From an uncultured Pseudomonadota bacterium (GTDB lineage: Bacteria; Pseudomonadota; Gammaproteobacteria; Burkholderiales; CAIKXV01), in contig CAIKXV010000192.1 of NCBI GenBank assembly GCA_903831455.1, positions 8,281-72,280 of the forward strand: DNA of 64,000 nucleotides, written 5' to 3'. Numbering within the stretch: the stretch's first letter is position 1; every line of letters starts with the position of its first letter. The notes under the pieces are model-generated. The model was not told the origin of the DNA. It saw only the letters and a program-made list of their open reading frames with translations, and did not search any database. This document shows, piece by piece, positions 33,302-46,133 of the stretch. The position numbers and the translations under genes are program-made.

Positions 33302-34324
33302 ATGCACCCCACGCTTCCCCTGCTCGCAGACACCGACTTCCCGCCGATCCGGCGCCGTTCCCTGGACACCCTCCAGGTCAACCTGGGTTACCGCTGCAAC
33401 CAGAGCTGCCTGCACTGCCACGTCGCCGCCAGCCCGCAGCGCACCGAGATGATGGGCGGCGACACCATCGCGCTGGTGCTCGACGTGCTGCGTGAACGCA
33501 AGGTCTCGACGCTGGACCTCACCGGCGGCGCGCCAGAGCTCAACGAGCACTTCCGCGAACTGGTGCGGCAGGCCCGGGCGCTGGGCGTTCGCGTCATCGA
33601 CCGTTGCAACCTCACCATCCTGTCCGAACCCGGCCAGGAGGATCTGGCGGCCTTCCTGGCCGAGCAGCGTGTCGAGGTGACCGCATCGCTGCCCTGCTAC
33701 TCGCCGGCCAACGTCGACCGCCAGCGCGGCGATGGCGTGTTCGATCGCAGCATCGCCGGCCTGCGGCAACTCAATGCGCTGGGCTTTGGCGACCCGGCGC
33801 ACGGCCTGGTGCTCAACCTCGTCTACAACCCGCAGGGCCCTTCGCTGCCGCCACCGCAGGGCCCACTCGAGGCCGATTACAAGCGCGAACTGCTGCAGCA
33901 TTTCGGGATCCGCTTCGACCACCTGTTCGCCCTGACCAACATGCCCATCCAGCGCTTCGGCAGCACGCTGGTCAGCAAGGGCACCTTTGCCGATTACATG
34001 CGCCTGCTGCGCGAAGCCTATCGACCCGCCAACCTCGAGACCGTGATGTGTCGCAGCCTGCTCAGCGTCGACTGGAACGGGTTCCTGTACGACTGCGACT
34101 TCAACCAGATGCTGGGCCTGCCCGCCTCCCTTCAAGGCCATGAGCACCCGCACCTGAGGGACCTCCTGCGCCATGACCCGGTCGATGCGGATATCCTCGT
34201 CGCGGATCACTGCTACGGATGCACCGCAGGCCAGGGCAGCAGTTGCGGAGGGGCCCTGGAGTCGGACACCGCTCCCTCGATGTCCGCGGCGTCGGCCCGC
34301 GATCCGGGCAGAGTGGCCCGATGA
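33302..34324 (+). CDS. arsS: Radical SAM/Cys-rich domain protein, ArsS family (arsenosugar-biosynthesis radical SAM type; Cys version, no in-frame TGA)
   Basis: 340 aa. Features: radical SAM CNQSCLHC, DLTGGAPELN, and C-terminal CDFNQ ... HCYGCTAGQGSSCGG Cys-rich tail. The stop overlaps the next start (ATGA at 34321). Confidence 0.75.
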   Translation: MHPTLPLLADTDFPPIRRRSLDTLQVNLGYRCNQSCLHCHVAASPQRTEMMGGDTIALVLDVLRERKVSTLDLTGGAPELNEHFRELVRQARALGVRVIDRCNLTILSEPGQEDLAAFLAEQRVEVTASLPCYSPANVDRQRGDGVFDRSIAGLRQLNALGFGDPAHGLVLNLVYNPQGPSLPPPQGPLEADYKRELLQHFGIRFDHLFALTNMPIQRFGSTLVSKGTFADYMRLLREAYRPANLETVMCRSLLSVDWNGFLYDCDFNQMLGLPASLQGHEHPHLRDLLRHDPVDADILVADHCYGCTAGQGSSCGGALESDTAPSMSAASARDPGRVAR

Positions 34325-36486
34325 CCCGTCCCCCGAGGAGCGTGCTCTGGATCGCCACCCTTGCGGTTGCCGCCGCGGCGTTCTGGGCCTGGCAGCAGTT
34401 CGAGCTGGGCTCCCTGCTGACGCTCGACGGACTGAAGGCCAGCCGCGACACGCTGCAGGCGCAGGTCCAGGCGCAGCCGCTGACGGCCGCCGCGATCTTC
34501 TTCGCCGGGTACGTCGTGGCCACGGCGCTTTCGATCCCGGGCGCGCTGGTCCTGACCCTGGCCGCCGGTGCCCTCTTCGGCCTGGCCTGGGGTCTGGTCC
34601 TCGTGAGTTTCGCCTCCAGCCTGGGCGCCCTGCTCGCCTTCCTCGTGGCGCGCCACCTCCTGCGCGACTGGGTCCAGGCACGCTTCGGCAAGGTGCTGGA
34701 CCCCATCAACGAGGGCATCCGGAAGGACGGGACGTTCTACCTGCTGACCCTGCGACTGGTACCGGTGTTCCCGTTCTGGCTGATCAACCTCCTCATGGGG
34801 CTGACGCCGATCAGCGCCGGACGCTTCTATGTCGTCAGCCAGGTCGGCATGCTGGCTGGCACCGCGGTGTACGTGAACGCGGGCACGCAACTCGCCGCCA
34901 TCCAGTCGCCCGGCGACATCCTGTCGCCCGGGTTGCTCGGCAGCTTCGTGCTGCTGGGCCTGTTCCCGCTGCTGGCGAGGGCGTGCGTCGGGTGGCTGCA
35001 GCGACGCAAGGTCTATGCGAGATGGACGAAGCCGAAGCGCTTCGACCGCAACCTGGTGGTCATCGGTGCCGGTGCAGGCGGGCTGGTGTCGGCCTACATC
35101 GCGGCGGCGGTGAGGGCCAAGGTCACGCTGATCGAAGGCCACAGGATGGGGGGCGACTGCCTGAATTACGGCTGCGTGCCCAGCAAGGCGCTGATCCGCT
35201 CGGCCACGATGGCCCGGCAGCTGAAGAAGGCGCACGAGCTGGGCGTTGCCGAGGCGGCGGGACGCGTCGACTTCGCGGCGGTGATGCAGCGCGTGCATCG
35301 CGTCATCCGCGACATCGCGCCCCACGACTCGGTCGAACGCTACACCGGGCTGGGCGTCGAGGTGCTGCAGGGGCATGCCCGCATCACAAGCCCGTGGACC
35401 GTCGAGGTGAAGCTCGCCGATGGCCGTACGCAGACGCTGAGCACGAAGGCCATCGTGATCGCGGCAGGTGCCCGCCCGTTCGCCCCGCCGCTCCCGGGGC
35501 TGGCCGAGGCCGGCTACCTCACGAGCGACACCCTCTGGGGACTGACCGAACTGCCGAAGCGCCTCGTCGTGCTGGGCGGCGGTCCGATCGGCAGCGAACT
35601 CGCCCAGAGCTTCGCACGCCTGGGCAGCGCGGTCACGCAGGTGGAAATGGCCTCGCGCATCCTGCTGCGCGAGGATCCCGAGGTGTCTGATCTCGTGGCC
35701 GCTTCGCTACGTGCCGATGGCGTGAAGCTGCTCACCGGGCACCAGGCGATACGGGTGGAGGTGGTCGATGGCGAGAAGCGCCTGGTCGCGAGGCACGGCG
35801 ATGCGGACGTCTCCATCCCCTTCGACGAGCTGCTGTGCGCCGTGGGCCGCAGCCCGCGCGTTGCAGGCTACGGCCTCGAGGAGCTGGGCATCCCGCTGAC
35901 CCCGCGCGGGACGATCGAGACGAACGCGTACCTCCAGACCCTCTACCCCAACATCTACGCGGTCGGCGATGTAGCCGGCCCCTTCCAGTTCACGCACGCC
36001 GCGGCCCACCAGGCCTGGTACGCAGCGGTGAACGCGCTGTTCGGGCGCTTTCGCCGCTTCAAGGCCGATTACCGGGTGGTCCCGTGGGCGACCTTCACCG
36101 ATCCCGAGGTGGCGCGGGTGGGCCTGAGCGAGAGCGAAGCCGCGCAACAGGGAATCGCCTGCGAGGTGACGAAATACGGGCTCGACGACCTCGACCGGGC
36201 CATCGCCGACGGCAGCGCGCACGGCTTCGTCAAGGTGCTCACCGCGCCGGGGACGGACCGCATCCTGGGCGTGACCATCGTCGGTGAACATGCCGGCGAC
36301 CTGCTCGCCGAGTACGTACTGGCCATGAAGCACGGCCTCGGGCTGAACAGGATCCTTGGCACGATCCATACCTATCCGACGTTGGCCGAGGCAAACAAGT
36401 ACGCCGCGGGCGAGTGGAAGCGCGCGAACGCGCCGCAGGGACTGCTGCGCTGGGTAGGCCGCTACCACGCGTGGGAGCGGACATGA
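34321..36486 (+). CDS. Fusion protein: DedA/TVP38/TMEM64 (SNARE-associated) membrane domain + class-I FAD-dependent pyridine nucleotide-disulfide oxidoreductase (mercuric reductase/lipoamide dehydrogenase-like)
   Basis: Frame of ORF 34219..36486, ATG 34321. N-terminal half has about 5 hydrophobic helices (e.g. YLLTLRLVPVFPFWLINLLMG). Then VVIGAGAGGLVSAY, redox-active GGDCLNYGCVPSKAL, a second dinucleotide fold VVLGGGPIGSELAQ, AVGDVAG, and C-terminal HTYPTLAE. Confidence 0.85.
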   Translation: MTRPPRSVLWIATLAVAAAAFWAWQQFELGSLLTLDGLKASRDTLQAQVQAQPLTAAAIFFAGYVVATALSIPGALVLTLAAGALFGLAWGLVLVSFASSLGALLAFLVARHLLRDWVQARFGKVLDPINEGIRKDGTFYLLTLRLVPVFPFWLINLLMGLTPISAGRFYVVSQVGMLAGTAVYVNAGTQLAAIQSPGDILSPGLLGSFVLLGLFPLLARACVGWLQRRKVYARWTKPKRFDRNLVVIGAGAGGLVSAYIAAAVRAKVTLIEGHRMGGDCLNYGCVPSKALIRSATMARQLKKAHELGVAEAAGRVDFAAVMQRVHRVIRDIAPHDSVERYTGLGVEVLQGHARITSPWTVEVKLADGRTQTLSTKAIVIAAGARPFAPPLPGLAEAGYLTSDTLWGLTELPKRLVVLGGGPIGSELAQSFARLGSAVTQVEMASRILLREDPEVSDLVAASLRADGVKLLTGHQAIRVEVVDGEKRLVARHGDADVSIPFDELLCAVGRSPRVAGYGLEELGIPLTPRGTIETNAYLQTLYPNIYAVGDVAGPFQFTHAAAHQAWYAAVNALFGRFRRFKADYRVVPWATFTDPEVARVGLSESEAAQQGIACEVTKYGLDDLDRAIADGSAHGFVKVLTAPGTDRILGVTIVGEHAGDLLAEYVLAMKHGLGLNRILGTIHTYPTLAEANKYAAGEWKRANAPQGLLRWVGRYHAWERT

Positions 36487-37346
36487 GCGCCGGATCCCGA
36501 CGCGCCTGGCTGGCAGCCGTACTGAACACGACGACCTCGCTGGTCCTGCTGCGGGCCGACGCCCTGCGCGCCCAGGCGACGCCCGGCTTCGACCACTCGC
36601 ACGCCGCGTGGACGAACCTGCTGCGAAAGCACGTCCGGCTGGTCCGGGGCGGGCAGGCATCGCAGGTATCCTATGCAGGCTTTGCGACGGACCGCGCAGC
36701 CCTCAGGGCCTACCTCGACAGCCTGTCGGCCGTGACGCCCGCCACGTTCGCAGGCTGGACCACGCCCGAGCGCCAGGCCTTCCTGATCAACGCCTACAAT
36801 GCCTTCACCGTCGAACGGGTGCTCACGCGGTATCCCGACCTGAAGTCCATCAGGGACCTGGGCACCCTGCTCGCGAGTCCGTGGCGACCGAGATGGATCC
36901 CGCTGCTGGGCAGCAAGGTCTCGCTCGACGACATCGAACACGCGATGCTGCGCAAGCGCGGTGACTACGACGACCCGCGAATCCACTTCGCCGTCAACTG
37001 CGCGAGCATCGGCTGCCCTGCCTTGCGCGAGGACGCGTTCGTCGCGGCCCGCCTCGATGCCCAGCTGGACGAGCAGACGCTGAGGTTCATGGGCGACCGT
37101 ACGCGAAACCGCTGGAATGCCGCGCGGGGGAGGCTGGAACTGTCGAAGATCTTCGACTGGTACGGCGAGGATTTCCGCCTCGGGCACCGGGGCATCGCGT
37201 CGCTGGCTGCATTTGCAGCGCGCCATGCAGACGCCCTGGCGGACACGCCCTCCGACCGTGAACGCATCCGCAGCGGTCGGGTCGACATCGCCTTCATCGA
37301 GTACGACTGGGCCCTGAACGACGTGCGCGCCGGCGACGCGCGATGA
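36483..37346 (+). CDS. DUF547 domain-containing protein (secreted/periplasmic?)
   Basis: Frame of ORF 36414..37346. ATG 36483 overlaps the upstream stop (ATGA). Features: FLINAYNAFTV, VSLDDIEH..LR, DPRIHFAVNCASIGCPAL, ELSKIFDWYGEDF. These match my recollection of DUF547. Confidence 0.7.
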   Translation: MSAGSRRAWLAAVLNTTTSLVLLRADALRAQATPGFDHSHAAWTNLLRKHVRLVRGGQASQVSYAGFATDRAALRAYLDSLSAVTPATFAGWTTPERQAFLINAYNAFTVERVLTRYPDLKSIRDLGTLLASPWRPRWIPLLGSKVSLDDIEHAMLRKRGDYDDPRIHFAVNCASIGCPALREDAFVAARLDAQLDEQTLRFMGDRTRNRWNAARGRLELSKIFDWYGEDFRLGHRGIASLAAFAARHADALADTPSDRERIRSGRVDIAFIEYDWALNDVRAGDAR

Positions 37347-37695
37347 CGCCGGTGCGGTCCATCCTGATGCCCGCAGTGGTCGAGGCGATCGGCTTCGAGG
37401 CCGCACGGCGAATGCCGCGCGGGCTTCGCGCGCGCAGCGTCCGGGTCTCGCGGGCCGATGGCGGCGCAGGCGGCGGCACGGTCCGGGGCGCAGCACCGCC
37501 GGCGGATGCGCGGGTCGCCTTGCGCACTCATGTATACCGGATGCGCGCGGTCGTCACCGCGAACCCCGCGGGTACGATGCATCGCCAGCCGGTCGACGGC
37601 CGCCCCTCTCTGCTCGCCGATCGCACGCATCGCGCGTATCGGTGCCGGATGAAAACGGCCTGCCCCTTCATGACCCGGCCGCTGGGGCGCCGCAG

Positions 37696-38880
37696 GTGAA
37701 GCGCCTGCTTCTCGCCGGCGCGGGCCATGCGCACGCATTCGTCCTCGAGTCGCTGATCAGGCAACCGATGCCCGGGGTTGACGTCGTGCTGGTCTCGCCC
37801 GAGCCGCTGGCGCCGTACTCGGGGATGGTGCCCGGCTGGCTGTCGGGCCACTATCGATTCGACGAGATCGTCATCGATTTCCGGTCCCTCGTCGCGGCCG
37901 CCGGCGCACGCTGGGTGCAGGGAGAACTCCACGGTCTGGATCCCGCGCAGCGCCTCGTCCGGCTGGTCGGTGGCTCGTCGATGGGCTACGACGTGCTGTC
38001 CCTGAATGTCGGCTCGACGCTGTACCCGCCGTGGCATGGACACGCCCAGTTGCTGCCGCTGAGACCGCTGTCGTTGCTCCGGGAACGTTACGAACGCGTG
38101 CTCGAGCGCTGGAGCCGGGACCCTTCTTGCAGCCCGTTCGTCGTCACGGCCGTGGGCGGCGGCGCGGCGGGAGTCGAGGCGCTCCTGGCCGTCCTCGCCC
38201 GTCTCCGGGCCTTGCGCCCGGACCGCATCGTGCGCGGCCACCTGCGCACGCGCGGACCCACGCTGCTGGCCGACCTTGCGCCGCCGGCCCGACGGGCAGC
38301 CTGTCGCGCGCTGGATCGCGCCGGCGTGGCCGTCGAAACCGACAGCGCGTGGTCCGCGCAGATCGACCGCCACAGCGATCTCGTCATCTGGGCTACCGGC
38401 GCACAGGCGCAGCCCTGGCAGCGCGCTCCCGCGCGGCGCGGTGCGCTGGCGGTCGACGCACAGGGCTTCATCCGCATCGATCCCCAGCTTCGATCCATCT
38501 CCCATCCCGACATCCTGGCCGCCGGCGACTGCGCGAGCTGGACGGAGCGCACCTTGCCCAAGGCAGGCGTGCATGCCGTGCGAATGGGACCCGTGCTCGC
38601 CACCAACCTGCGCGCCGCCCTGCTCGGCCCCGAGGTTGGCGGAGCCTTCATCGAGCACCGGCCACAGCGGCACGCCCTGTCGCTGCTGTCCATCGGCGCG
38701 GGCCGCGCCATCGCCTCGCGCGGGACACTCGGCGCCGAAGGCGCGTGGGCGTGGCGATGGAAGGACCGTATCGACCGCCGATTCGTGAGCCGGTTTCGCA
38801 CGACCCGGCCCGATTGCGCGACGGCAGCCCCCACCCCGCTCGCCGACGGATCCAGTACGACCCCGGGTACCCCTCGATGA
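37696..38880 (+). CDS. FAD/NAD(P)-dependent pyridine nucleotide-disulfide oxidoreductase-family protein (NDH-2-like; resembles the class found fused or adjacent to SelD)
   Basis: ORF 37642..38880. I favour GTG 37696 (VKRLLLAGAGHAHAF...); ATG 37642 is the alternative. Features: VSPEPLAPYSGMVPGWLSGHY, VTAVGGGAAGVE, ILAAGDCA. Confidence 0.7.
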   Translation: MKRLLLAGAGHAHAFVLESLIRQPMPGVDVVLVSPEPLAPYSGMVPGWLSGHYRFDEIVIDFRSLVAAAGARWVQGELHGLDPAQRLVRLVGGSSMGYDVLSLNVGSTLYPPWHGHAQLLPLRPLSLLRERYERVLERWSRDPSCSPFVVTAVGGGAAGVEALLAVLARLRALRPDRIVRGHLRTRGPTLLADLAPPARRAACRALDRAGVAVETDSAWSAQIDRHSDLVIWATGAQAQPWQRAPARRGALAVDAQGFIRIDPQLRSISHPDILAAGDCASWTERTLPKAGVHAVRMGPVLATNLRAALLGPEVGGAFIEHRPQRHALSLLSIGAGRAIASRGTLGAEGAWAWRWKDRIDRRFVSRFRTTRPDCATAAPTPLADGSSTTPGTPR

Positions 38881-39779
38881 AGCCGACTCGTCGTCACGCC
38901 TGCAGCGTGCTGCTGGGCAGTGTCCTCGCCCTGCCCTCGCTCACGACCGCGCAGCGTTCCCCGGCGGCCGGGCCGCTCAGGTTCGGGGTCGGGATGTTCC
39001 AGCCCGACCGCGAGCGAAACGACGCCTCCTACAGGCCCCTCGCCGCCTATCTTGCGCAGCAACTCGGCCGACCGGTCCAGTTGCGCACCGTCGACACCTG
39101 GGAGGGGCTGGCTCGCAGCCTGTCGACCGGGGAGACCGATCTGGCGCTGATGGGGCCATGGGGCTACGTGCTGGCCAATCACTTCAGCGACGCCCAGGTG
39201 GTCGCGACCATCCTCTACCAGGGCAAGCCCGAGTACTTCGCCCTGATCGTCACGCACCCGGGCTCCGGGCTGAACAGCCTCGACGACCTGCTGGGCACGA
39301 AAGGCATCGGGCGCACTTTCGCCTTCGGCGACAAGGGCTCGACCTCCGGGTATCTGATCCCGTTCCACGAGTTCCAGAAACGCGGCATCGATCCCGAGAA
39401 GCACTTCGCGCGGGTACTCCACACGAAGCACCAGGCGATCCAGATCCAGGTCACCGCGGGCAAGCTCGACGCCGGGGCGGACTTCAATCGAAATCGCGAC
39501 GTGATGATCGCCCAGGGCCTGATCAGCGCGGCGAACAGCAGGATCATCTGGCAGTCGCAGCCCCTGCCCAACGACGCCTTCGCGGTGAGTTCGGTGCTCG
39601 CGAAGGACACGGCGTTCGTCACGCGCCTGCAGGCTGCCCTGACCGGTATCGGCCCGCGGCTTGCCACCCAGCCGAACCTGCTGCCGCCCGACTACACGGG
39701 CTTCATCGCCAGCGCACACAGCGCCTACAAACCGATCCGCGATGCCGGGTTGGCCACCGGAAAGCTGGTCGCGCGATGA
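38877..39779 (+). CDS. phnD: PhnD-family ABC transporter periplasmic substrate-binding protein (phosphonate/phosphite/oxyanion type)
   Basis: ATG 38877 overlaps the upstream stop (ATGA). Signal MKPTRRHACSVLLGSVLALPSLTTA. Features: DLALMGPWGYV and FGDKGSTSGYLIP. Confidence 0.75.
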   Translation: MKPTRRHACSVLLGSVLALPSLTTAQRSPAAGPLRFGVGMFQPDRERNDASYRPLAAYLAQQLGRPVQLRTVDTWEGLARSLSTGETDLALMGPWGYVLANHFSDAQVVATILYQGKPEYFALIVTHPGSGLNSLDDLLGTKGIGRTFAFGDKGSTSGYLIPFHEFQKRGIDPEKHFARVLHTKHQAIQIQVTAGKLDAGADFNRNRDVMIAQGLISAANSRIIWQSQPLPNDAFAVSSVLAKDTAFVTRLQAALTGIGPRLATQPNLLPPDYTGFIASAHSAYKPIRDAGLATGKLVAR

Positions 39780-40681
39780 CCCGTTCGGGTCCGATCCCTC
39801 CGGACGGACCGCGCCCCGGGCGTCGGTTCGCCGGACGCACGGGCTTCGCCGCGCTGGCGGTGCTGTACGGGGCACTGGTCGGGGTGTGCCTGGCGACGCT
39901 CGTGGGTGCGGGCGACCTGAGCCTGGGCCGCAACCCGATCGAGAACCTGGCCAGGACCGTCGGCGAGTTCCTGCGCCCCAGCTTTCTGGACGTCTGGCTC
40001 GGTCCGGAGCGGCTGGAATACCGCAGCGACGACGGCAGCGTGCTCAGGGTGGAGAACCGCCGCGAGGTCGAGGCCGGTTTCCTGGCCGCCACGGCGCGCG
40101 CCACCTGGGTCACCTTCCAGATCGCGACGCTGGGCTCCCTGCTGGCCGCGCTGATGGGCCTGCCCCTGGCCCTGCTGGTCGCACGAAACCTGCGCGCCCC
40201 GCGCCTCCTGGCATGGATGGCGAAGGGCATCCTCGACGTGTCGCGCTCCGTCCACACGCTGGTCTTCGGTCTGATCCTGGTCGGCATCGTCGGATTGGGG
40301 CCCACCGCCGGCGTCCTGGCCATTGCGCTGCACTCGATGGGAACCTGCGGCAAGCTGTTTGCCGAGAGCATCGAGTCGATGGACATGGCAGCGATCGACG
40401 CCGTCCGAGCGACCGGGGCGTCCGAGGCCCAGGTCTTCTTCCATGGCGTGTGGCCATCCGTCCTGCCGCAGATCGTGAGCCACCACCTCTACGTCTGGGA
40501 ATTCAACATCCGCGACTCGACCATCCTCGGCCTGATCGGTGCCGGCGGCCTCGGCCTGCTGATCAGCGAGGCGGTGAGTCTGTTCCAGTGGGACCGGTTG
40601 AGCACGCTGCTGATCGTGGTGGTGGCGCTGGTGATGGCCTTCGACGCGCTGTCGCGTCGGATCCGGGAGGCGCTGCTGTGA
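39776..40681 (+). CDS. phnE: PhnE-like ABC transporter permease
   Basis: ATG 39776 overlaps the upstream stop (ATGA). Multiple TM helices. EAA-loop-like IDAVRATGASEAQVFFHGVWPSVLPQIVS, then IRDSTILGLIGAGGLG. Confidence 0.8.
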   Translation: MTRSGPIPPDGPRPGRRFAGRTGFAALAVLYGALVGVCLATLVGAGDLSLGRNPIENLARTVGEFLRPSFLDVWLGPERLEYRSDDGSVLRVENRREVEAGFLAATARATWVTFQIATLGSLLAALMGLPLALLVARNLRAPRLLAWMAKGILDVSRSVHTLVFGLILVGIVGLGPTAGVLAIALHSMGTCGKLFAESIESMDMAAIDAVRATGASEAQVFFHGVWPSVLPQIVSHHLYVWEFNIRDSTILGLIGAGGLGLLISEAVSLFQWDRLSTLLIVVVALVMAFDALSRRIREALL

Positions 40682-40691
40682 AGGCTGTCCG

Positions 40692-41540
40692 ATGAGCACT
40701 GCCATCCGCATGGAGGGGATGCGGGTAGCCCTCGCCGGGCGTGTGGTCCTCGACGTGCCACGCCTGGTCATCGAGACCGGCGAGCGTGTCGCCATCGTCG
40801 GTCCCAATGGTGCGGGCAAGAGCATGTTGCTGAAGGTGATCGGCGCCGGGGTCCCGGCCCGACACGGGCAGGTCCACGTGCTGGGGTACTCGCTGGGCCC
40901 TGACCCCTCGGAGGGGGAAGGCACCCACCGTGCGCTCGCACCCGACGCGCGACGCGCGCTGCGCCGCGATACCGGGCTGTTGATGCAGGGCCTGCACCTC
41001 GTGCAGCGCCTGAGCGCCCGGGAGAACGTGCTGATTGGCGCGCTGGCCCGGCTCCACGGCGTGCACGCGCTGCGGAGCTGGGCCCGCTGGTACCCGACGG
41101 ACCTGGTCGCCGAGGCCGATGCCATGCTCACGGCCCTGGGGCTGGCCGATCGAGTCGGAACGCGAGCCGATCGGCTGTCGGGCGGCGAACGGCAGAAGGT
41201 GGCGCTCGCCCGGATGCTGCTGCAGAGACCCCGGCTGATCCTCGCCGACGAGCCGACCTCGGCGCTGGACCCGACCGCAACACGCGAGGTCTGTGCCGCA
41301 CTGGTCGGCGCGGCCGCCGATCGGGATCGGACGCTCGTGACCGTCGTGCATGACCTGGACTTGCTGCCCGCCCTGTCCACGCGCGTGATCGGAATACGCG
41401 CGGGGTGCATCGCCTGGGACCTGCCCACGGGCCGGGTAACGCCGCAGCGACTGCAGGCCCTGTATGGGCAGCCCCCCGTGCAGGCCGATGGTCCCGAGGT
41501 CGACCCGCCGGCCGCGCCGAATGCCGGTTGGCAGGCCTGA
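40692..41540 (+). CDS. phnC: PhnC-like ABC transporter ATP-binding protein
   Basis: Walker A GPNGAGKS, signature LSGGERQKVALAR, Walker B LILADEPTSALD, and PhnC-like ENVLIGALARL. Confidence 0.85.
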   Translation: MSTAIRMEGMRVALAGRVVLDVPRLVIETGERVAIVGPNGAGKSMLLKVIGAGVPARHGQVHVLGYSLGPDPSEGEGTHRALAPDARRALRRDTGLLMQGLHLVQRLSARENVLIGALARLHGVHALRSWARWYPTDLVAEADAMLTALGLADRVGTRADRLSGGERQKVALARMLLQRPRLILADEPTSALDPTATREVCAALVGAAADRDRTLVTVVHDLDLLPALSTRVIGIRAGCIAWDLPTGRVTPQRLQALYGQPPVQADGPEVDPPAAPNAGWQA

Positions 41541-41559
41541 GCCTCTACCTGTGTCCGCA

Positions 41560-42615
41560 ATGGATTCGACGAAGATGACCGACACCCTCGAGCAGGCACC
41601 CACGCCGCACCCAGGGCGCAGTTGCCCCCTGCACTACCGCTATGCGCCGGAGGTGTTCCGCGAACAGGCCCCGCCGCGGCTGCAATCGCTGGAGGTGCTG
41701 TATGTCGTCGGCGGGTTGTACGGGAACGAGCCTGCGCTGCAGGCGGTGCTGGATCTCTTCGCCCGGGAGAGCGGTCGAAAGCGCCTGGTGTTCAACGGCG
41801 ACTTCCACTGGTTCGATACCGATCCCGCCCGATTCTCGCGGGTGCAGGCGGCAGTGCTCGAGCACGAGGCGCTCCGCGGCAACGTCGAGACGGAACTCGC
41901 CGAAGAACCCGGCAGCGATGATGCGGGGTGTGGCTGTGCGTATCCGGAGTGGGTCGGCGATGAAGTGGTGGAGCGCTCGAACCGGATCCTCGCGCGGTTG
42001 CGTCGCACGGTGGCACCACGGCAGCAGGCGGAGTTGTCGGCGCTGCCGATGTGGGGGCGCGCCGATGTCGGTGAGCTTCGCCTGGGGATCGTGCATGGCG
42101 ATGCCACTTCGCTCTCGGGATGGGGCTTCTCCCAGGAGCATTTGCGTGACCCGGGGCATCGCGAGACCGTGCGCGGCTGGCTCGAGCGAGCGGCGGTCGA
42201 TGCATTCGCGTGTACGCACACCTGCCTGCCCGTCTTCCAGGAGGTGCGGGTACCCGCCGCCGAGCCGCCGCGCTGGATCCTGAACAACGGTGCAGCCGGC
42301 ATGCCCAATTTCTCGGGGGATACGGCCGGCCTGCTGACCCGGGTGGCCGTGACGCCCTATCGCGGGCCTGGGCGCCGATTCGGATTCGTCGCGCCACGCG
42401 GAAACATCCACGTCGACGCGATCGGCATCGAGTTTTCGACCGATGCATGGCTGGCGCAGTTCTGCAGGGACTGGCCGCCGGGCAGTGACGCCCATGATTC
42501 CTATTTCAATCGACTGGCCAGGGGACCCGACTATCACCCTGCGGAGGCCCTCCGCGTCGACGCGGGTGTGCGCTCGCCGCTTTCCCGGGGACGGGCCGGA
42601 ATTCAGCGGACCTGA
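41560..42615 (+). CDS. Divergent calcineurin-like metallophosphoesterase-fold protein (function unknown)
   Basis: Frame of ORF 41464..42615, ATG 41560. Ordered motif remnants: VVGGLYGN (in place of DxH), NGDFHWFD (GDxxDR-like), LRGNVE (GNHE-like), IVHGD, CTHTC (GHxH-like). Also a GCGCAYPEW Cys pair. Confidence 0.5.
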   Translation: MDSTKMTDTLEQAPTPHPGRSCPLHYRYAPEVFREQAPPRLQSLEVLYVVGGLYGNEPALQAVLDLFARESGRKRLVFNGDFHWFDTDPARFSRVQAAVLEHEALRGNVETELAEEPGSDDAGCGCAYPEWVGDEVVERSNRILARLRRTVAPRQQAELSALPMWGRADVGELRLGIVHGDATSLSGWGFSQEHLRDPGHRETVRGWLERAAVDAFACTHTCLPVFQEVRVPAAEPPRWILNNGAAGMPNFSGDTAGLLTRVAVTPYRGPGRRFGFVAPRGNIHVDAIGIEFSTDAWLAQFCRDWPPGSDAHDSYFNRLARGPDYHPAEALRVDAGVRSPLSRGRAGIQRT

Positions 42616-42629
42616 GGGAGCACAGGCGG

Positions 42630-43376
42630 ATGCCCTCGCGCACGGCAGGGGTTGCATCGCGGTCGGTGGGCGGCGGCGCGCTGCTGCTGGTGATGCTCTC
42701 GGCCGCAGTCCACGCGGCTTCGCTCGCTCCGCTGGCCGGTCCCGAGGGTGCAACGCCGCAGGCGCCCTGGGTGTTCTCAGGGCTTCCCGGCCAGTCGCTT
42801 CCCGCAACCCGCTTCATGTTCGACCGGCTGGAAGACCGCACGGTCCTTCGCATCCAGACCGCCGGGTCCTATGGAAACCTTGTCCATCCGCTGGCGGCCT
42901 CGTCCGCCGGGCGCCTGTCCTGGCGCTGGCGGGTCGACCTGCCGCTGAAGTCCGCCGACCTGCGCAGCCGCCCGGGCGACGACGTCGCGCTGAAGGTCTG
43001 CGCGCTGTTCGACATGCCACGGGACTCGGTGCCCTTCCTCGATCGTCAACTGCTGCGGCTCGCCGAGACCCGCACAGGGCAGCCGCTTCCCACGGCGACC
43101 GTGTGCTACGCGTGGGACCCCTCGTCACCTGCCGGCACCGTGGTGCCGAATGCCTACAGCCGGCGCGTGCGCTATATCACCCTCGGCATGCCGCCGCGTA
43201 CCTGGCAGGCGGTGAGCCGGAACCTGGCCGACGACTTCATCCGCGCCTTCGGCGACGAGGCGACCACCGTCCCCCCGTTACGCGCCATCGCCGTCGGGGC
43301 CGATGCCGACAATACGGGCGGCAGCAGCATCGGCTTCATTGCCGACCTCGAATGGACGCCAACCGGGACACGCTGA
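42630..43376 (+). CDS. DUF3047 domain-containing exported protein
   Basis: 248 aa with GAGGGAG RBS. Signal ...GGGALLLVMLSAAVHAAS. Features: LSWRWRV, GDDVALKVCALFD, and AIAVGADADNTGG, as I recall for DUF3047. Confidence 0.6.
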   Translation: MPSRTAGVASRSVGGGALLLVMLSAAVHAASLAPLAGPEGATPQAPWVFSGLPGQSLPATRFMFDRLEDRTVLRIQTAGSYGNLVHPLAASSAGRLSWRWRVDLPLKSADLRSRPGDDVALKVCALFDMPRDSVPFLDRQLLRLAETRTGQPLPTATVCYAWDPSSPAGTVVPNAYSRRVRYITLGMPPRTWQAVSRNLADDFIRAFGDEATTVPPLRAIAVGADADNTGGSSIGFIADLEWTPTGTR

Positions 43377-43525: not shown

Positions 43526-45670
43526 TCAGCGCGCGGCTACCCCCGGCCCCGGCCCACGCGCGAACCAGCTGAGCGCATCGCCACGGATCTCGCCCATGTG
43601 CACGACGCCGATCGAGCAGTCGATACCGGGCTTCGCGTCCTCGCCGTCACACTCGCCGAATGTTCCCGAAATCCACACCTCGTAGTGGCCATCCCGGTCG
43701 AGGTCCGTCACCGCGGAGATCGTTCCGCTGTTGTACTGGAACTGGAAGCGTGAGGGGATACCGACTGGGCGCACACCTTCGGGCCCGACAAGCAGCAGCA
43801 CCCGGTCGCCCAACCACGGCCACCACGGCCGCGCGACGTCGTCGCTGAACCGGGACAGCCTGAGTTCCACGAGGCCACGGCCGCCACGCGGAGAACGCCA
43901 GCCCGAGACCCCCCCTTCGATCTGCAACCGTTGCGCCGCCAGCGTGTCCAGCACGGCTTGCAGGGCGTCGCCCTGCCCGGGGCGCAGCGCGTCCACGATC
44001 AACCGCAGCGCCCGCACCGGGTCCTCCGGTTCGGCGCGCGCTGACCGAGAGGCTGGCCGCCTCGCCGGCGTAAAGCGCTCCGTCCGCGTGAGCCTGCGAC
44101 CCCACGCCCTCCCCACCGCCTGCGGCGCGCCCACCGCCGCCCTGCAGACCGCCTCGGTCGAAGGGTCCCGAGGCGTGACGGCCTTTCCGAAGCAGGCATT
44201 ACCGTCTTCCGTGAGGCCGGCCACCAGCTCGTCATACGTCGTGCCCTGCAGCGAGCCGAGGATACGCGCGAGATCCGCACGAAGCGCCAGCACGTCCGGA
44301 TCGGACGGGTGCTTTTGCATCCACACCCACTCCGGTTGCGCGCATCGGCTTTCGCGACCCGATTTCAGCCTTTCAAGCATGTGCCGGGTCTGCAGCGACG
44401 GGGGCAGGTTCGCAAACCAGCCGCGGAGCACTGCGCACGGACGGTTCGCATCGTCGTCGAGTCGCGCGACCTCGACGCGTACCGCGGCGCGCAGCCGCGG
44501 CTGGTCGGGTAGTGCATCGAAGCCGCGCCACGGACTGACCGGCTTGTTGTAGGAATCGATCTCGAGGTTCCAGCGCCTGACGTAGGGGTCGAGGAAGTCC
44601 TCGCGCAACCGGCTCATCCGCACGAGGGTTCGCGCCAGCGCATCGGCGGGCCAGGCCTTCGGGGCGTGGGCCACCGACTGCAGCTGCGCCCGCAACCACT
44701 GCGCGCGACGCAGTCCGGCCTGGTAGCGCTCGCGGGCATCCTCGACCTTCGAGGAGACGAAATCGACGTACTCGCGCTGCGCCGGGGGCAGCGGCGCGTC
44801 GGGCGCCACCTCCGGATCGAGCCGCTGCAGCGCCTCGGCCAGCGCCGGGTCCGCCGGCGAGAGGCTCGCCCACGCGGCCGCGATCGTCACGCAATCGTCG
44901 GCACCCCGCGCGGTGCAGCGATCTGCCGCGAGCCACCGTGCGAATTCGGCCTCCAGGGCCGGCGTCGCGCGGGCGGCGACGGCCTCGCGCAGGCGCTGGT
45001 TCGCCTCCAGTTCGTGCTCGTTGAACGCCGGGCGATCAGCCAGCCGCCTGCGTACGCAGTGACCGAACTCCGACTCCTCAGGCGCGGAGCTGTTTGCCCC
45101 CAGGGGCCAACGGGTCAACTGCAGGTCCTGTCCATCGGGCGGCAGGCCATCTGCCCAGATCCATACGCGCTTGGGCAGGCATGACCAGAGCGCGAAGAAG
45201 ACGATCGCCCGCGTGCTCCAGGTCTCGTCGGGCCGCAGAAGCGCGCCCGTCAGCCTGCGCTCGCGCTGAACGAATTCCGTGTTCCACGGAAACCAGCGCC
45301 ACATCTGCCGGGCAACGTCTGAAGGACGCTCGGCGACCAGCACCGTGTCGAGCCGGGCGGCGAGCTGCACCCCTGCCCATCGCTCCCGGAACAACCGCTG
45401 GGCGAAGTCCGGCGCCGCGAGTAGGCGCTGCAGGCTCTCCGGGGATGCGGCCTCCGGCCGGAACGCAGCACGATCGGCTGCACGCAGTTCGCCGTAGGCC
45501 CGGAGTTCCCTCACGACCGCCGCGAGCGCGGGGTCAGGTGCAAGGGGCGCGGCCTCGGGGGACCGAGAGGGCTCGCCGGCAGCCCACGCGCAAGGGGCCA
45601 GCAGGATCAGGCACATCGATACCCAGCGCAGGGCGATGAACCGGAAACGACCGCCTGGCAGAGCGTTCAT
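43526..45670 (-). CDS. Large exported Cys-rich hypothetical protein with a C-terminal FG-GAP/Ca-binding-like DxDxDG motif
   Basis: ORF 43526..45712. ATG 45670 gives MNALPGGRFRFIALRWVSMCLILLAPCAWAAG as signal. About 12 Cys spread through the mature part. C-terminal VTDLDRDGHYEVWISGTFGECDG. I recognise no other family. Confidence 0.6.
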   Translation of the reverse strand: MNALPGGRFRFIALRWVSMCLILLAPCAWAAGEPSRSPEAAPLAPDPALAAVVRELRAYGELRAADRAAFRPEAASPESLQRLLAAPDFAQRLFRERWAGVQLAARLDTVLVAERPSDVARQMWRWFPWNTEFVQRERRLTGALLRPDETWSTRAIVFFALWSCLPKRVWIWADGLPPDGQDLQLTRWPLGANSSAPEESEFGHCVRRRLADRPAFNEHELEANQRLREAVAARATPALEAEFARWLAADRCTARGADDCVTIAAAWASLSPADPALAEALQRLDPEVAPDAPLPPAQREYVDFVSSKVEDARERYQAGLRRAQWLRAQLQSVAHAPKAWPADALARTLVRMSRLREDFLDPYVRRWNLEIDSYNKPVSPWRGFDALPDQPRLRAAVRVEVARLDDDANRPCAVLRGWFANLPPSLQTRHMLERLKSGRESRCAQPEWVWMQKHPSDPDVLALRADLARILGSLQGTTYDELVAGLTEDGNACFGKAVTPRDPSTEAVCRAAVGAPQAVGRAWGRRLTRTERFTPARRPASRSARAEPEDPVRALRLIVDALRPGQGDALQAVLDTLAAQRLQIEGGVSGWRSPRGGRGLVELRLSRFSDDVARPWWPWLGDRVLLLVGPEGVRPVGIPSRFQFQYNSGTISAVTDLDRDGHYEVWISGTFGECDGEDAKPGIDCSIGVVHMGEIRGDALSWFARGPGPGVAAR

Positions 45671-46133
45671 CGCCGGGCGGTAGTGGACCGGGGAACGCGC
45701 ATGGGTGTGCATCGCTTCGTCGATTCGCGGGGTGCCGCGCTCACCAGCACGGTGACTATCGCCACGGTAGAAACAGTCAACATTCGCCAGGGTTTTATCT
45801 CAGGAACTCTACAAGTAGCGGAACGGTTATGGCCATTAATCCGAGAACGCAGACAAGTGCGAAGTAGAGGCGATAGCGCGTAAGGCCCGTGCGAACGCCC
45901 TCAGCGGTGAGATGCTCCGCGACTCCGTGACAGTATCTGCACGAACAGAACGGTCGAGCTCTGACAGTACGTGCTGGTCGAGTTGAGGAAGCATGTATTG
46001 TGAGACCTGAGGACGCGCTGAGGTAATTGGTTTTCGGATGAGCCATCCACTCTGCGGTGGAGCCTACCGTCACGACACGCGTAACCCATTGTCGCATCGG
46101 AACTTTCAGGCCGCGTGTTTGCCGTCAACGTAC

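Follow-up and report, generated by a model that had tools for sequence, protein, structure and literature searches.

The ABC importer encoded in the window (the whole 64,000-nucleotide stretch of DNA analysed) is an accessory part of an operon of ArsS, an enzyme that forms a carbon-arsenic bond, and most likely imports an arsenic compound for reduction, arsenic being the best-supported element. In the original prediction, its three genes, together with a flavoprotein gene before them and a phosphoesterase-like gene after them, were described as a module of their own. The five genes are real as described: their translations match the description, the GC3 coding signal is strong in all five ORFs (0.79–0.91), and the quoted flavoprotein motifs (GAGHAHAF, YSGMVPGWLSGHY and AAGDCA) are present. 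We likewise confirmed the order binding protein-permease-ATPase and the ATGA overlaps of the flavoprotein and binding-protein genes (at 38877) and of the binding-protein and permease genes (at 39776). The module is not free-standing, however, since its members are genes 5–9 of a ten-gene, overlap-coupled operon (33302–43376; Table 1) that is headed by ArsS and has the importer module as its second half.

Table 1 Genes of the ArsS-headed operon in window coordinates, with the best evidence for each assignment.
Product	Coordinates	Strand	Evidence
ArsS, radical SAM enzyme, first operon gene	33302..34324	+	TIGR04167 455 bits (cut-off 300), DUF3641, Radical_SAM
Membrane VTT/DedA domain fused to MerA/LpdA-like FAD disulfide reductase	34321..36486	+	PF09335, Pyr_redox_2, Pyr_redox_dim
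DUF547 protein	36483..37346	+	PF04784 85 bits
118-aa ORF, N-terminal remnant of TIGR04283 glycosyltransferase	37343..37699	+	41% identity over 58 aa (E 2e-9) to the N-terminus of the glycosyltransferase at related locus L017
NDH-2-like flavoprotein, probably of the TIGR03169 family ("N-terminal to SelD" type)	37696..38880	+	TIGR03169 306.9 bits (cut-off 310)
Periplasmic binding protein, "HtxB-like" subgroup of PhnD/PtxB/HtxB family	38877..39779	+	HtxB (5me4) 166 bits, E 6e-48
ABC permease, PhnE type	39776..40678	+	TIGR01097 234.7 bits (cut-off 216.7)
ABC ATPase, PhnC-like	40692..41540	+	TIGR02315 159.7 bits (cut-off 266), PF00005
Car1-like "half-site" metallophosphoesterase-fold protein, invariant Cys-Gly-Cys	41560..42615	+	AlphaFold/Foldseek, hhalign
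DUF3047 protein, final operon gene	42630..43376	+	PF11249 157.7 bits

The ArsS gene overlaps its neighbour by ATGA, and ATG 36483 gives the DUF547 gene the same overlap (its start might also be a GTG further upstream, at 36414). For the flavoprotein, GTG 37696 is the more likely start, as it would overlap the preceding ORF by GTGA and fit the MKRL with which homologues open, while alignment favours ATG 41560 over 41464 for the phosphoesterase-like gene.

The original prediction had placed the importer in metalloid chemistry, and this placement is borne out by its position behind ArsS and by its distribution. In a profile survey of 201 Burkholderiales genomes (75 with ArsS), the importer and the phosphoesterase-like gene were both confined to ArsS genomes (17/17, p = 1.5e-8, and 38/38, p = 2e-20, respectively), and within the ArsS genomes the importer was accompanied by the phosphoesterase-like gene in 16 of 17 cases (p = 5e-5). 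We also compared gene order across 80 related loci, with counts taken on 54 or 51 of them depending on the position. The permease follows the binding protein in 54/54 loci, the ATPase and the phosphoesterase-like gene are each present in 48/54, ArsS lies upstream in 38/51, and the VTT/DedA-MerA/LpdA-like fusion is present in 32/51; DUF3047 is found downstream in 12/54. Importer and phosphoesterase-like gene adjoin in three alphaproteobacterial loci too, and their pairing recurs in genomes of the same genus whose ArsS cluster lies elsewhere. In alphaproteobacterial loci with the module, no ArsS was found within 10 kb. Among the common flanking families of the loci we found no classical ars resistance genes, the commonest being ECF sigma/NrsF pairs. 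Related clusters include rhodanese and DedA-type partners, and several partners (TIGR03169, rhodanese, DedA) have selenium or sulfur associations. The alphaproteobacterial loci, the flanking families and these associations weigh against an arsenic role.

The flavoprotein had been proposed as the redox partner coupled to the importer, a role that its distribution does not support. The protein matches Pyr_redox_2 and, at a score just below the cut-off, covers model positions 2–365 of 365 of TIGR03169, is stand-alone rather than fused to SelD, and has NDH-2, FSP1 and SQR as its nearest solved relatives (best E 4e-22); it has no redox-active cysteine pair, its sole invariant cysteine lying in the GDC(A) motif. 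TIGR03169 flavoproteins are present in 66 of the 75 ArsS genomes, with or without the importer, and show no association with it within these genomes (p = 0.67). Directly upstream of the importer, the flavoprotein gene is found in 32 of the 80 related loci and ArsS in 17. The flavoprotein is thus a core ArsS-cluster gene and not the importer's conserved partner; it would adjoin the importer only because of the site at which the module was inserted.

The conserved partner is the fifth protein of the module. The idea that the imported species is reduced on arrival is plausible, with the Car1-like protein in the place given to the flavoprotein. No Pfam or NCBIfam family matches this protein, but an AlphaFold model (pLDDT 86) has the metallophosphoesterase fold, with Foldseek matches to SapH, 3rqz and 1nnw (E 2e-10, target TM-score 0.73). 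Its motifs include GNVE, with GGLYGN replacing SDVHGN (motif I lost) and THTC replacing GHTH; to judge from these residues, one metal site has probably been lost together with motif I (DxH) and the last His of GHTH. The protein described earlier as a degenerate phosphoesterase is the importer's conserved partner and probably of Car1 type, with an invariant Cys-Gly-Cys.

A tblastn search with the importer-linked protein led to phosphoesterases encoded in ars operons of Hymenobacter (arsR-DUF6428-MPE-GNAT-acr3, E 2e-15) and Paraclostridium (arsR-MPE-acr3-arsM, E 1e-10). The Hymenobacter match was recovered by hhalign (probability 95%, E 2.6e-8), and C124-G-C126 aligns with C74-G-C76 of this homologue, the motif being invariant in 9/9 aligned sequences. 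The aligned ars-operon homologues keep the full set of metal-site motifs. According to the account in PMC12124457, Car1 of Rufibacter tibetensis (Shen et al. 2024) is a metallophosphoesterase-fold arsenate reductase in which Cys74 and Cys76 are reported to be essential. Our comparison, in which the ars-operon proteins were taken as Car1 orthologues and stand in place of Car1, points to the fifth protein as a Car1-type, cysteine-bearing relative of this arsenate reductase and as a candidate thiol reductase for an imported As(V) species. It shares with Car1 and the two homologues the fold, the CGC corresponding to Cys74/Cys76, the second metal site's GD, GN and H motifs and the arsenic context. 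In contrast, it carries an extra GRSCP segment at the N-terminus and is extended at the C-terminus, lies in ArsS clusters beside importers rather than in arsR-acr3 operons, and is just 19–24% identical to the ars-operon Car1 homologues. Having lost motif I and motif V's second His, it cannot work exactly like Car1, a point against the arsenic reading.

The binding protein matches PF12974 (181.8 bits) and, judged by its solved relatives, is HtxB-like and not a PhnD: HtxB is far ahead of PtxB, PhnD and AioX (60–88 bits). The HtxB pocket residues W52, Y97, T129, S130, R178 and D206 are kept as W75, Y120, T156, S157, R205 and D233, all invariant across the family, whereas N128, F158 and M176 of HtxB proper are replaced by S155, H185 and F203. 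N128S/F158H/M176F(Y) with the Trp cap kept is the published "HtxB-like" signature (Adams et al. 2019, PMC6629693), and L91 in place of W68 is an additional change. In that work, the three substitutions enlarge the pocket, Tyr/Thr/Ser bind oxygen, and the Arg-Asp wall excludes a third charged oxygen (PMC6629693). The HtxB-type pocket argues against tetrahedral tri- or tetra-oxo anions. The binding protein's one cysteine sits in the signal peptide.

As in the window importer, htx gene order starts with the binding protein. The window protein resembles HtxB of the HtxB-HtxCDE hypophosphite ABC importer (Pseudomonas stutzeri) in its Trp cap, in the Tyr/Thr/Ser residues that bind oxygen and in its Arg-Asp salt-bridge wall, and it shares with the HtxB-like subgroup (PMC6629693) the identical N128S, F158H and M176F/Y. 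It differs from the HtxB system in the extra W68L, and its importer is unlinked to htxA or ptxD and lies inside an ArsS cluster, with a Car1-like protein as its partner. The arsenite-/arsenate-sensing AioX/ArrX belong to the same periplasmic binding protein family (matches at 45–64 bits), so that arsenic oxyanions are established among the ligands of the PhnD/PtxB fold, but they are much more distant from the window protein than HtxB and are two-component sensors rather than transport proteins.

These features allow the alternatives to be weighed. Public sources annotate the binding protein as a phosphonate transport protein, its Pfam match is Phosphonate-bd, and the permease scores above the cut-off of the PhnE equivalog, as would be expected of an ordinary PhnCDE-type phosphonate importer that had acquired unrelated neighbours by chance. 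We regard this as highly improbable. Although E. coli PhnCDE is of the same ABC importer family, its gene order differs, and both the binding protein (142 bits on the PhnD equivalog TIGR03431, cut-off 261.1) and the ATPase score far below their equivalog cut-offs. Synteny with ArsS-cluster genes is conserved over about 80 loci in two classes, and a dianionic RPO3 group is disfavoured by the pocket's Arg-Asp wall. The original prediction had noted that the window holds no phosphonate catabolism genes, and this extends to the whole assembly (97.8% complete), in which neither PhnJ (C-P lyase) was found nor PhnX (phosphonatase) above cut-off (best 107 bits vs 220). This supports the conclusion that the importer has no part in phosphonate catabolism. 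With HtxB as by far the closest solved relative, the protein might instead bind phosphite or hypophosphite, either to supply phosphorus or to provide cluster chemistry with a P(III)/P(I) substrate; the phosphoesterase-fold neighbour would then act on the phosphorus compound. Adams et al. modelled the exact pocket signature (N128S, F158H, M176Y/F, Trp cap) and predicted phosphite as its ligand, the sole published prediction for it (PMC6629693), which counts against the arsenic reading, and phosphite oxidation is possible by phosphatase-fold enzymes (PMC12704751). A reduced-phosphorus substrate nevertheless seems unlikely to us: no HtxA- or PtxD-type gene was found in any conserved cluster position of the related loci, the genome already has a different, PtxB-signature paralogue adjoining a PtxD-like dehydrogenase on another contig, the importer is confined to ArsS genomes, and its constant partner is of Car1 type, with the redox CxC present and the catalytic His and motif I absent.

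One idea put forward in the original prediction, a selenium oxyanion, fares less well still, and we consider it improbable. Here the importer would take up selenite rather than selenate and feed a selenium branch in which the TIGR03169 flavoprotein reduces selenium. The TIGR03169 domain is found fused to SelD, the organism uses selenocysteine, as seen from the in-frame TGA of its SelD, members of the ArsS family and some ArsM-like genes are selenoproteins, and the rhodanese and DedA-type partners would fit; it may be deduced from PMC6629693 that an HtxB-type pocket could accept hydrogen selenite as a mimic of mono-anionic phosphite. Selenate itself is an unlikely ligand, given this pocket and a score of 93.8 bits on the putative selenate-binding protein model TIGR04553 (cut-off 250), on which a paralogue elsewhere in the genome (contig C23) reaches 354 bits. 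The flavoprotein moreover has no specific link to the importer, the constant partner comes from an arsenate-reductase family, and ArsS is experimentally an arsenic enzyme.

We observed the homologies, pocket signature, synteny, co-occurrence and absence of phn genes and ArsM, and infer from them which ligand is bound, that it is reduced and passed on to ArsS, and what the flavoprotein does. On balance, we favour a route in which a pentavalent, probably methylated, arsenical is taken up, reduced by thiols of the Car1-like protein and passed to ArsS, so that the genes at 38877–42615 would form an uptake-and-activation module of the ArsS organoarsenical system. The HtxB-like protein would capture a small pentavalent arsenic oxyanion, most likely methylarsonate (the arsenic counterpart of phosphite/methylphosphonate) or dimethylarsinate (that of hypophosphite) and less probably arsenate, and the PhnE/PhnC-like pair would import it. 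The Car1-like protein, with one metal site gone and Cys-x-Cys kept, would then reduce As(V) to As(III) and the trivalent product would go to ArsS, while the TIGR03169 flavoprotein, as core ArsS-cluster oxidoreductase, may supply electrons or be a second metalloid reductase. ArsS adds a 5'-deoxyadenosyl group to trivalent arsenic. In vitro it adenosylates DMAs(III), in work cited in PMC13598754.

Because ArsM was not found in the genome (best NF008823 match 52.7 bits, cut-off 263), the cell would be unable to make methylated arsenic itself. A bolder and distinctly more tentative proposal is that the four-gene unit might be dedicated to taking up and reducing methylated pentavalent arsenicals, as the first system of this kind, its binding protein gripping methylarsonate or dimethylarsinate by a methyl-pi cap where HtxB has a P-H-pi cap and its Cys-Gly-Cys protein being an MAs(V)/DMAs(V) reductase, for which we know of no identified gene. 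If this is correct, ArsM-less bacteria could scavenge the methylarsenic of others and build organoarsenicals with ArsS. That the importer replaces ArsM is no rule, since most ArsM-less ArsS genomes are importer-free: ArsM is absent from 53 of the 75 ArsS genomes, and among these 75 the importer is not anticorrelated with ArsM-like genes (p = 0.36), which counts against the favoured reading.

Like the Synechocystis ArsM-ArsS arsenosugar pathway and the TIGR04167/TIGR04282/TIGR04283 set, the window operon is headed by an ArsS equivalog, and the two "arsenosugar" glycosyltransferases are found in related loci together with an MTAP-like phosphorylase. In contrast to that pathway, the genome is without ArsM and the window copy without glycosyltransferases, and the operon adds the importer, the Car1-like protein, the TIGR03169 flavoprotein, VTT-MerA, DUF547 and DUF3047. 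Full clusters have TIGR04283 and TIGR04282 where the window has the 118-aa ORF, which marks the deletion of both glycosyltransferase genes. The window copy has also lost DUF302 and the MTAP-like gene, and these losses weigh against the arsenic reading. An orphan TIGR04283/TIGR04282 glycosyltransferase pair is present elsewhere in the genome (contig C150:42975-44251), the window cluster itself retaining only the 58-aa remnant.

The five genes of the module, for a flavoprotein, an HtxB-like binding protein (SBP), a permease, an ATPase and a phosphoesterase-like protein, are real as originally predicted: GC3 is 0.79–0.91 in the called frames, the quoted motifs are found in the translations, and the junctions of flavoprotein with SBP (38877) and of SBP with permease (39776) are both ATGA overlaps. 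The flavoprotein start is probably better placed at GTG 37696, creating a GTGA overlap, and that of the fifth gene probably at ATG 41560. Upstream of the module lie four same-strand genes chained by further ATGA overlaps, encoding ArsS, a VTT/DedA–MerA-like fusion, DUF547 and a 118-aa ORF. Promoter, terminator and Rfam scans of 32.5–44 kb gave nothing meaningful, and no such signal or riboswitch breaks the operon; a sub-threshold ASpks match in the Rfam scan was regarded as chance.

Coordinates of the operon and associated features (C, contigs of the same assembly; L, related loci; all others, the window)
Feature	Location	Strand	Remarks
Operon, ten genes	33302-43376	+	First gene ArsS (TIGR04167, 455 bits); last gene DUF3047
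118-aa ORF	37343-37699	+	N-terminal stump of a TIGR04283 glycosyltransferase
Flavoprotein	37696-38880	+	Pyr_redox_2; TIGR03169, 306.9 bits (cut-off 310)
SBP	38877-39779	+	PF12974, 181.8 bits
Permease		+	PhnE model, 234.7 bits, above cut-off
ATPase		+	PhnC-like, 159.7 bits, below cut-off
Phosphoesterase-like gene	41560-42615	+	
Kelch-repeat protein, 1162 aa	29724-33212	-	Divergent from operon
728-aa protein	43526-45712	-	Convergent on operon end; no family match
Paralogous SBP with own ABC system	C23:8816-9856		Passes putative selenate model TIGR04553, 354 bits
PtxB-signature SBP and ATPase	C146:25093-28120		Divergent from a D-2-hydroxyacid dehydrogenase (PtxD-like, 380 aa); probable phosphite uptake and oxidation locus
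SelD	C142:18877-19818		One in-frame TGA; therefore probably the selenocysteine form
TIGR04283/TIGR04282 pair	C150:42975-44251		Intact, orphan
ECF sigma/NrsF-type pair	L047:7550-8778		Example
Burkholderia glumae BGR1 locus (L119)	plasmid bglu_2p, 121311-141792		arsS, then directly the Car1-like gene (annotated hypothetical)

The original prediction had made the flavoprotein the redox partner coupled to the importer (SBP, permease and ATPase). Searching each family in one set of 201 genomes from the order, 75 of which carry ArsS, we found ArsS in 17/17 genomes with the importer SBP of two subgroups (p = 1.5e-8), in 38/38 with the phosphoesterase-like gene (p = 2e-20), in 66/70 with TIGR03169 (p = 8e-38) and in 22/30 with an ArsM-like gene (p = 2e-5), by Fisher tests that ignore phylogenetic non-independence. 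Within ArsS genomes, in tests with the same limitation, the importer accompanies the phosphoesterase-like gene (16/17, p = 5e-5) and is not associated with TIGR03169 (p = 0.67). The flavoprotein is part of the ArsS core. In genomes of the same genus the ArsS cluster is a different one (66% ArsS identity), and importer and phosphoesterase-like gene stand together at another locus. Three alphaproteobacterial loci have a homologous phosphoesterase immediately next to an HtxB-like SBP-permease-ATPase set, one of them adding rhodanese, DUF547, glycosyltransferases, a MerA-like gene and VTT, and in another genome of the phylum (G411) the importer is surrounded by the same partners. Co-occurrence and these loci together identify the importer and the phosphoesterase-like protein as the conserved unit. 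The phosphoesterase as an importer-only partner proved partly wrong, as the gene often directly adjoins ArsS without any importer, and the importer as a general substitute for ArsM was dropped as a rule, since the 75 ArsS genomes show no anticorrelation (ArsM in 3/17 with versus 19/58 without the importer, p = 0.36). An SBP-profile search of 401 genomes phylum-wide, with few candidates scored per genome, gave one extra match and says little.

Relatives of the SBP number more than 2,400 (E<=1e-10) in the database that was searched, with 72–81% identity among Burkholderiales. We gathered 80 genome loci, onto which we mapped the proteins of the operon. Downstream of the SBP lie the permease (54/54 loci), the ATPase and the phosphoesterase-like gene (48/54 each), and upstream lies ArsS (38/51); the position just before the SBP is taken by the flavoprotein (32 loci), ArsS (17), TIGR04282 (eight) or DUF547 (five). 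Full clusters (e.g. L017, L026, L043) run ArsS, VTT-MerA, DUF547, TIGR04283 and TIGR04282 glycosyltransferases, TIGR03169, SBP, permease, ATPase, DUF302, phosphoesterase-like gene, MTAP-like phosphorylase and DUF3047. Cultured, non-pathogenic carriers of the cluster include Rubrivivax albus, Pseudaquabacterium pictum, Hydrogenophaga intermedia and Roseateles. The window copy lacks both intact glycosyltransferases, DUF302 and the MTAP-like gene. The orphan glycosyltransferase pair on contig C150 occupies the position that the ArsS cluster has in genomes of the same genus (VTTMerA-ArsS-GT-GT-DUF3047-flavoprotein; GT, glycosyltransferase), which makes that locus, here without ArsS and VTT-MerA, complementary to the window operon; the two look like reciprocal losses after gain of a second ArsS cluster. 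The window ArsS is 78–86% identical to those of Rubrivivax, Aquabacterium and Steroidobacteraceae MAGs and only ~66% to own-genus ArsS (G015, G123, G073, G167; L103, L104, L109, L110), and this closer kinship with other genera suggests that the whole operon was acquired horizontally.

The 351-aa phosphoesterase-like protein has no match in PDB sequence, Pfam or NCBIfam searches; matches came only from a fold search and from tblastn into plasmids. Its AlphaFold model (pLDDT 86) matches the metallophosphoesterases SapH, 3rqz and 1nnw at E 2e-10. In the family alignment motif I is gone (GGLYGN), GD is retained, the remaining motifs read GNVE, VHGD and THTC, and the invariant cysteines include G-C-G-C. 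PMC12124457, citing work on Car1, an arsenate reductase of metallophosphoesterase fold, gives Cys74 and Cys76 as essential and places a homologue in a Paraclostridium arsR-orf1-acr3-arsM operon. With an alphaproteobacterial importer-linked phosphoesterase as query, tblastn matched the phosphoesterases of an ars operon on a Hymenobacter plasmid (E 2e-15) and of a Paraclostridium bifermentans arsR-MPE-acr3-arsM operon (MPE, metallophosphoesterase; E 1e-10). Hhalign relates the window family to the Hymenobacter protein with 95% probability (E 2.6e-8), and in a joint alignment the invariant Hymenobacter C74-G-C76 coincides with C124-G-C126 of the window protein. The ars-operon proteins retain motif I and GHTH, whereas the window family has neither; it is a derived "half-site" relative, for which we do not claim full membership.

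Among solved proteins, HtxB is closest to the SBP (166 bits, E 6e-48), with PtxB, PhnD, AioX and ArrX far weaker. Residue roles transferred from Adams et al. (PMC6629693) indicate that it shares three features with HtxB: W75 as Trp cap; Y120, T156 and S157 as oxygen ligands; and a salt bridge between R205 and D233, which in HtxB shuts out a third charged oxygen (PMC6629693). It differs in N128S, F158H and M176F, exactly the three changes of the "HtxB-like" subgroup, whose pocket was modelled as larger (88 versus 68 cubic angstroms) and predicted to bind phosphite (PMC6629693); W68L is an extra change of the window subfamily. The mature SBP, about residues 27–300, has no cysteines and so does not bind As(III) by way of thiols. 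Such a pocket would fit a small anion with two to three oxygens and one to two non-oxygen substituents, making phosphite, hypophosphite, MAs(V), DMAs(V) (pentavalent methylated arsenicals) and hydrogen selenite candidate ligands among which the pocket alone cannot choose.

Methylated arsenic in oxic water is pentavalent. ArsM is absent from the window's genome, and in a cell without it methylated arsenic must come from outside. The importer, with a pocket suiting R-AsO3H- or R2AsO2-, would take up external methylated As(V), a Car1-type thiol reductase would act after import, and ArsS, which adenosylates DMAs(III) in vitro (PMC13598754), would be the last step. This path is coherent, and we infer it as, on balance, somewhat probable. 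Phosphite, favoured by the published pocket prediction, seems an unlikely ligand; the same genome carries a second paralogous SBP, with a PtxB pocket signature, adjoining a PtxD-like dehydrogenase. Selenite, to which selenium associations of several cluster partners point, is decidedly improbable, and classical phosphonate uptake very unlikely: as the original prediction held for the window, phosphonate catabolism is absent, with no PhnJ and no PhnX above cut-off in the 97.8%-complete assembly.

We found no paper describing this gene combination. If import of methylated arsenic is correct, a widely mis-annotated "phosphonate transporter" subgroup, for which structural biologists predicted phosphite binding, would gain a function and an explanation; two open arsenic-cycle steps, methylated-arsenic uptake and reduction, would gain candidate genes; and many ArsS-bearing heterotrophs would process arsenic methylated by others without methylating it themselves. 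Being small and soluble, both the SBP and the Cys-Gly-Cys protein lend themselves to direct testing.

In a census of flanking genes, the common families included no ars resistance genes; the commonest were ECF sigma/NrsF pairs (13–14 of 150 flanking ORFs). An ECF sigma and NrsF-type anti-sigma pair lies directly upstream of ArsS in Hydrogenophaga-/Polaromonas-type loci (L041, L047-L049, L058, L062, L064, L074) and is a possible regulator of the ArsS cluster. Caulobacter uses its NrsF system in the response to chromate and cadmium. The plasmid locus of the rice pathogen B. glumae BGR1 also has TIGR04282/3, MTAP, an ECF sigma/anti-sigma pair, CcdA and thioredoxin, with an MFS transporter where others have the ABC importer; its Car1-like gene is common to 49 Burkholderia plasmids. 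In eight genomes (G004, G020, G061, G077, G148, G157, G166, G200) the best TIGR03169 matches lie in 734–899-aa open frames away from the ArsS cluster, presumably SelD-type fusions. Burkholderiales ArsM-like genes with a single in-frame TGA (G026, G055, G128, G145) may be selenoprotein forms, and a sub-cut-off ArsM-like gene lies within ~7 kb of ArsS in G025, G038, G049, G103, G133 and G140.
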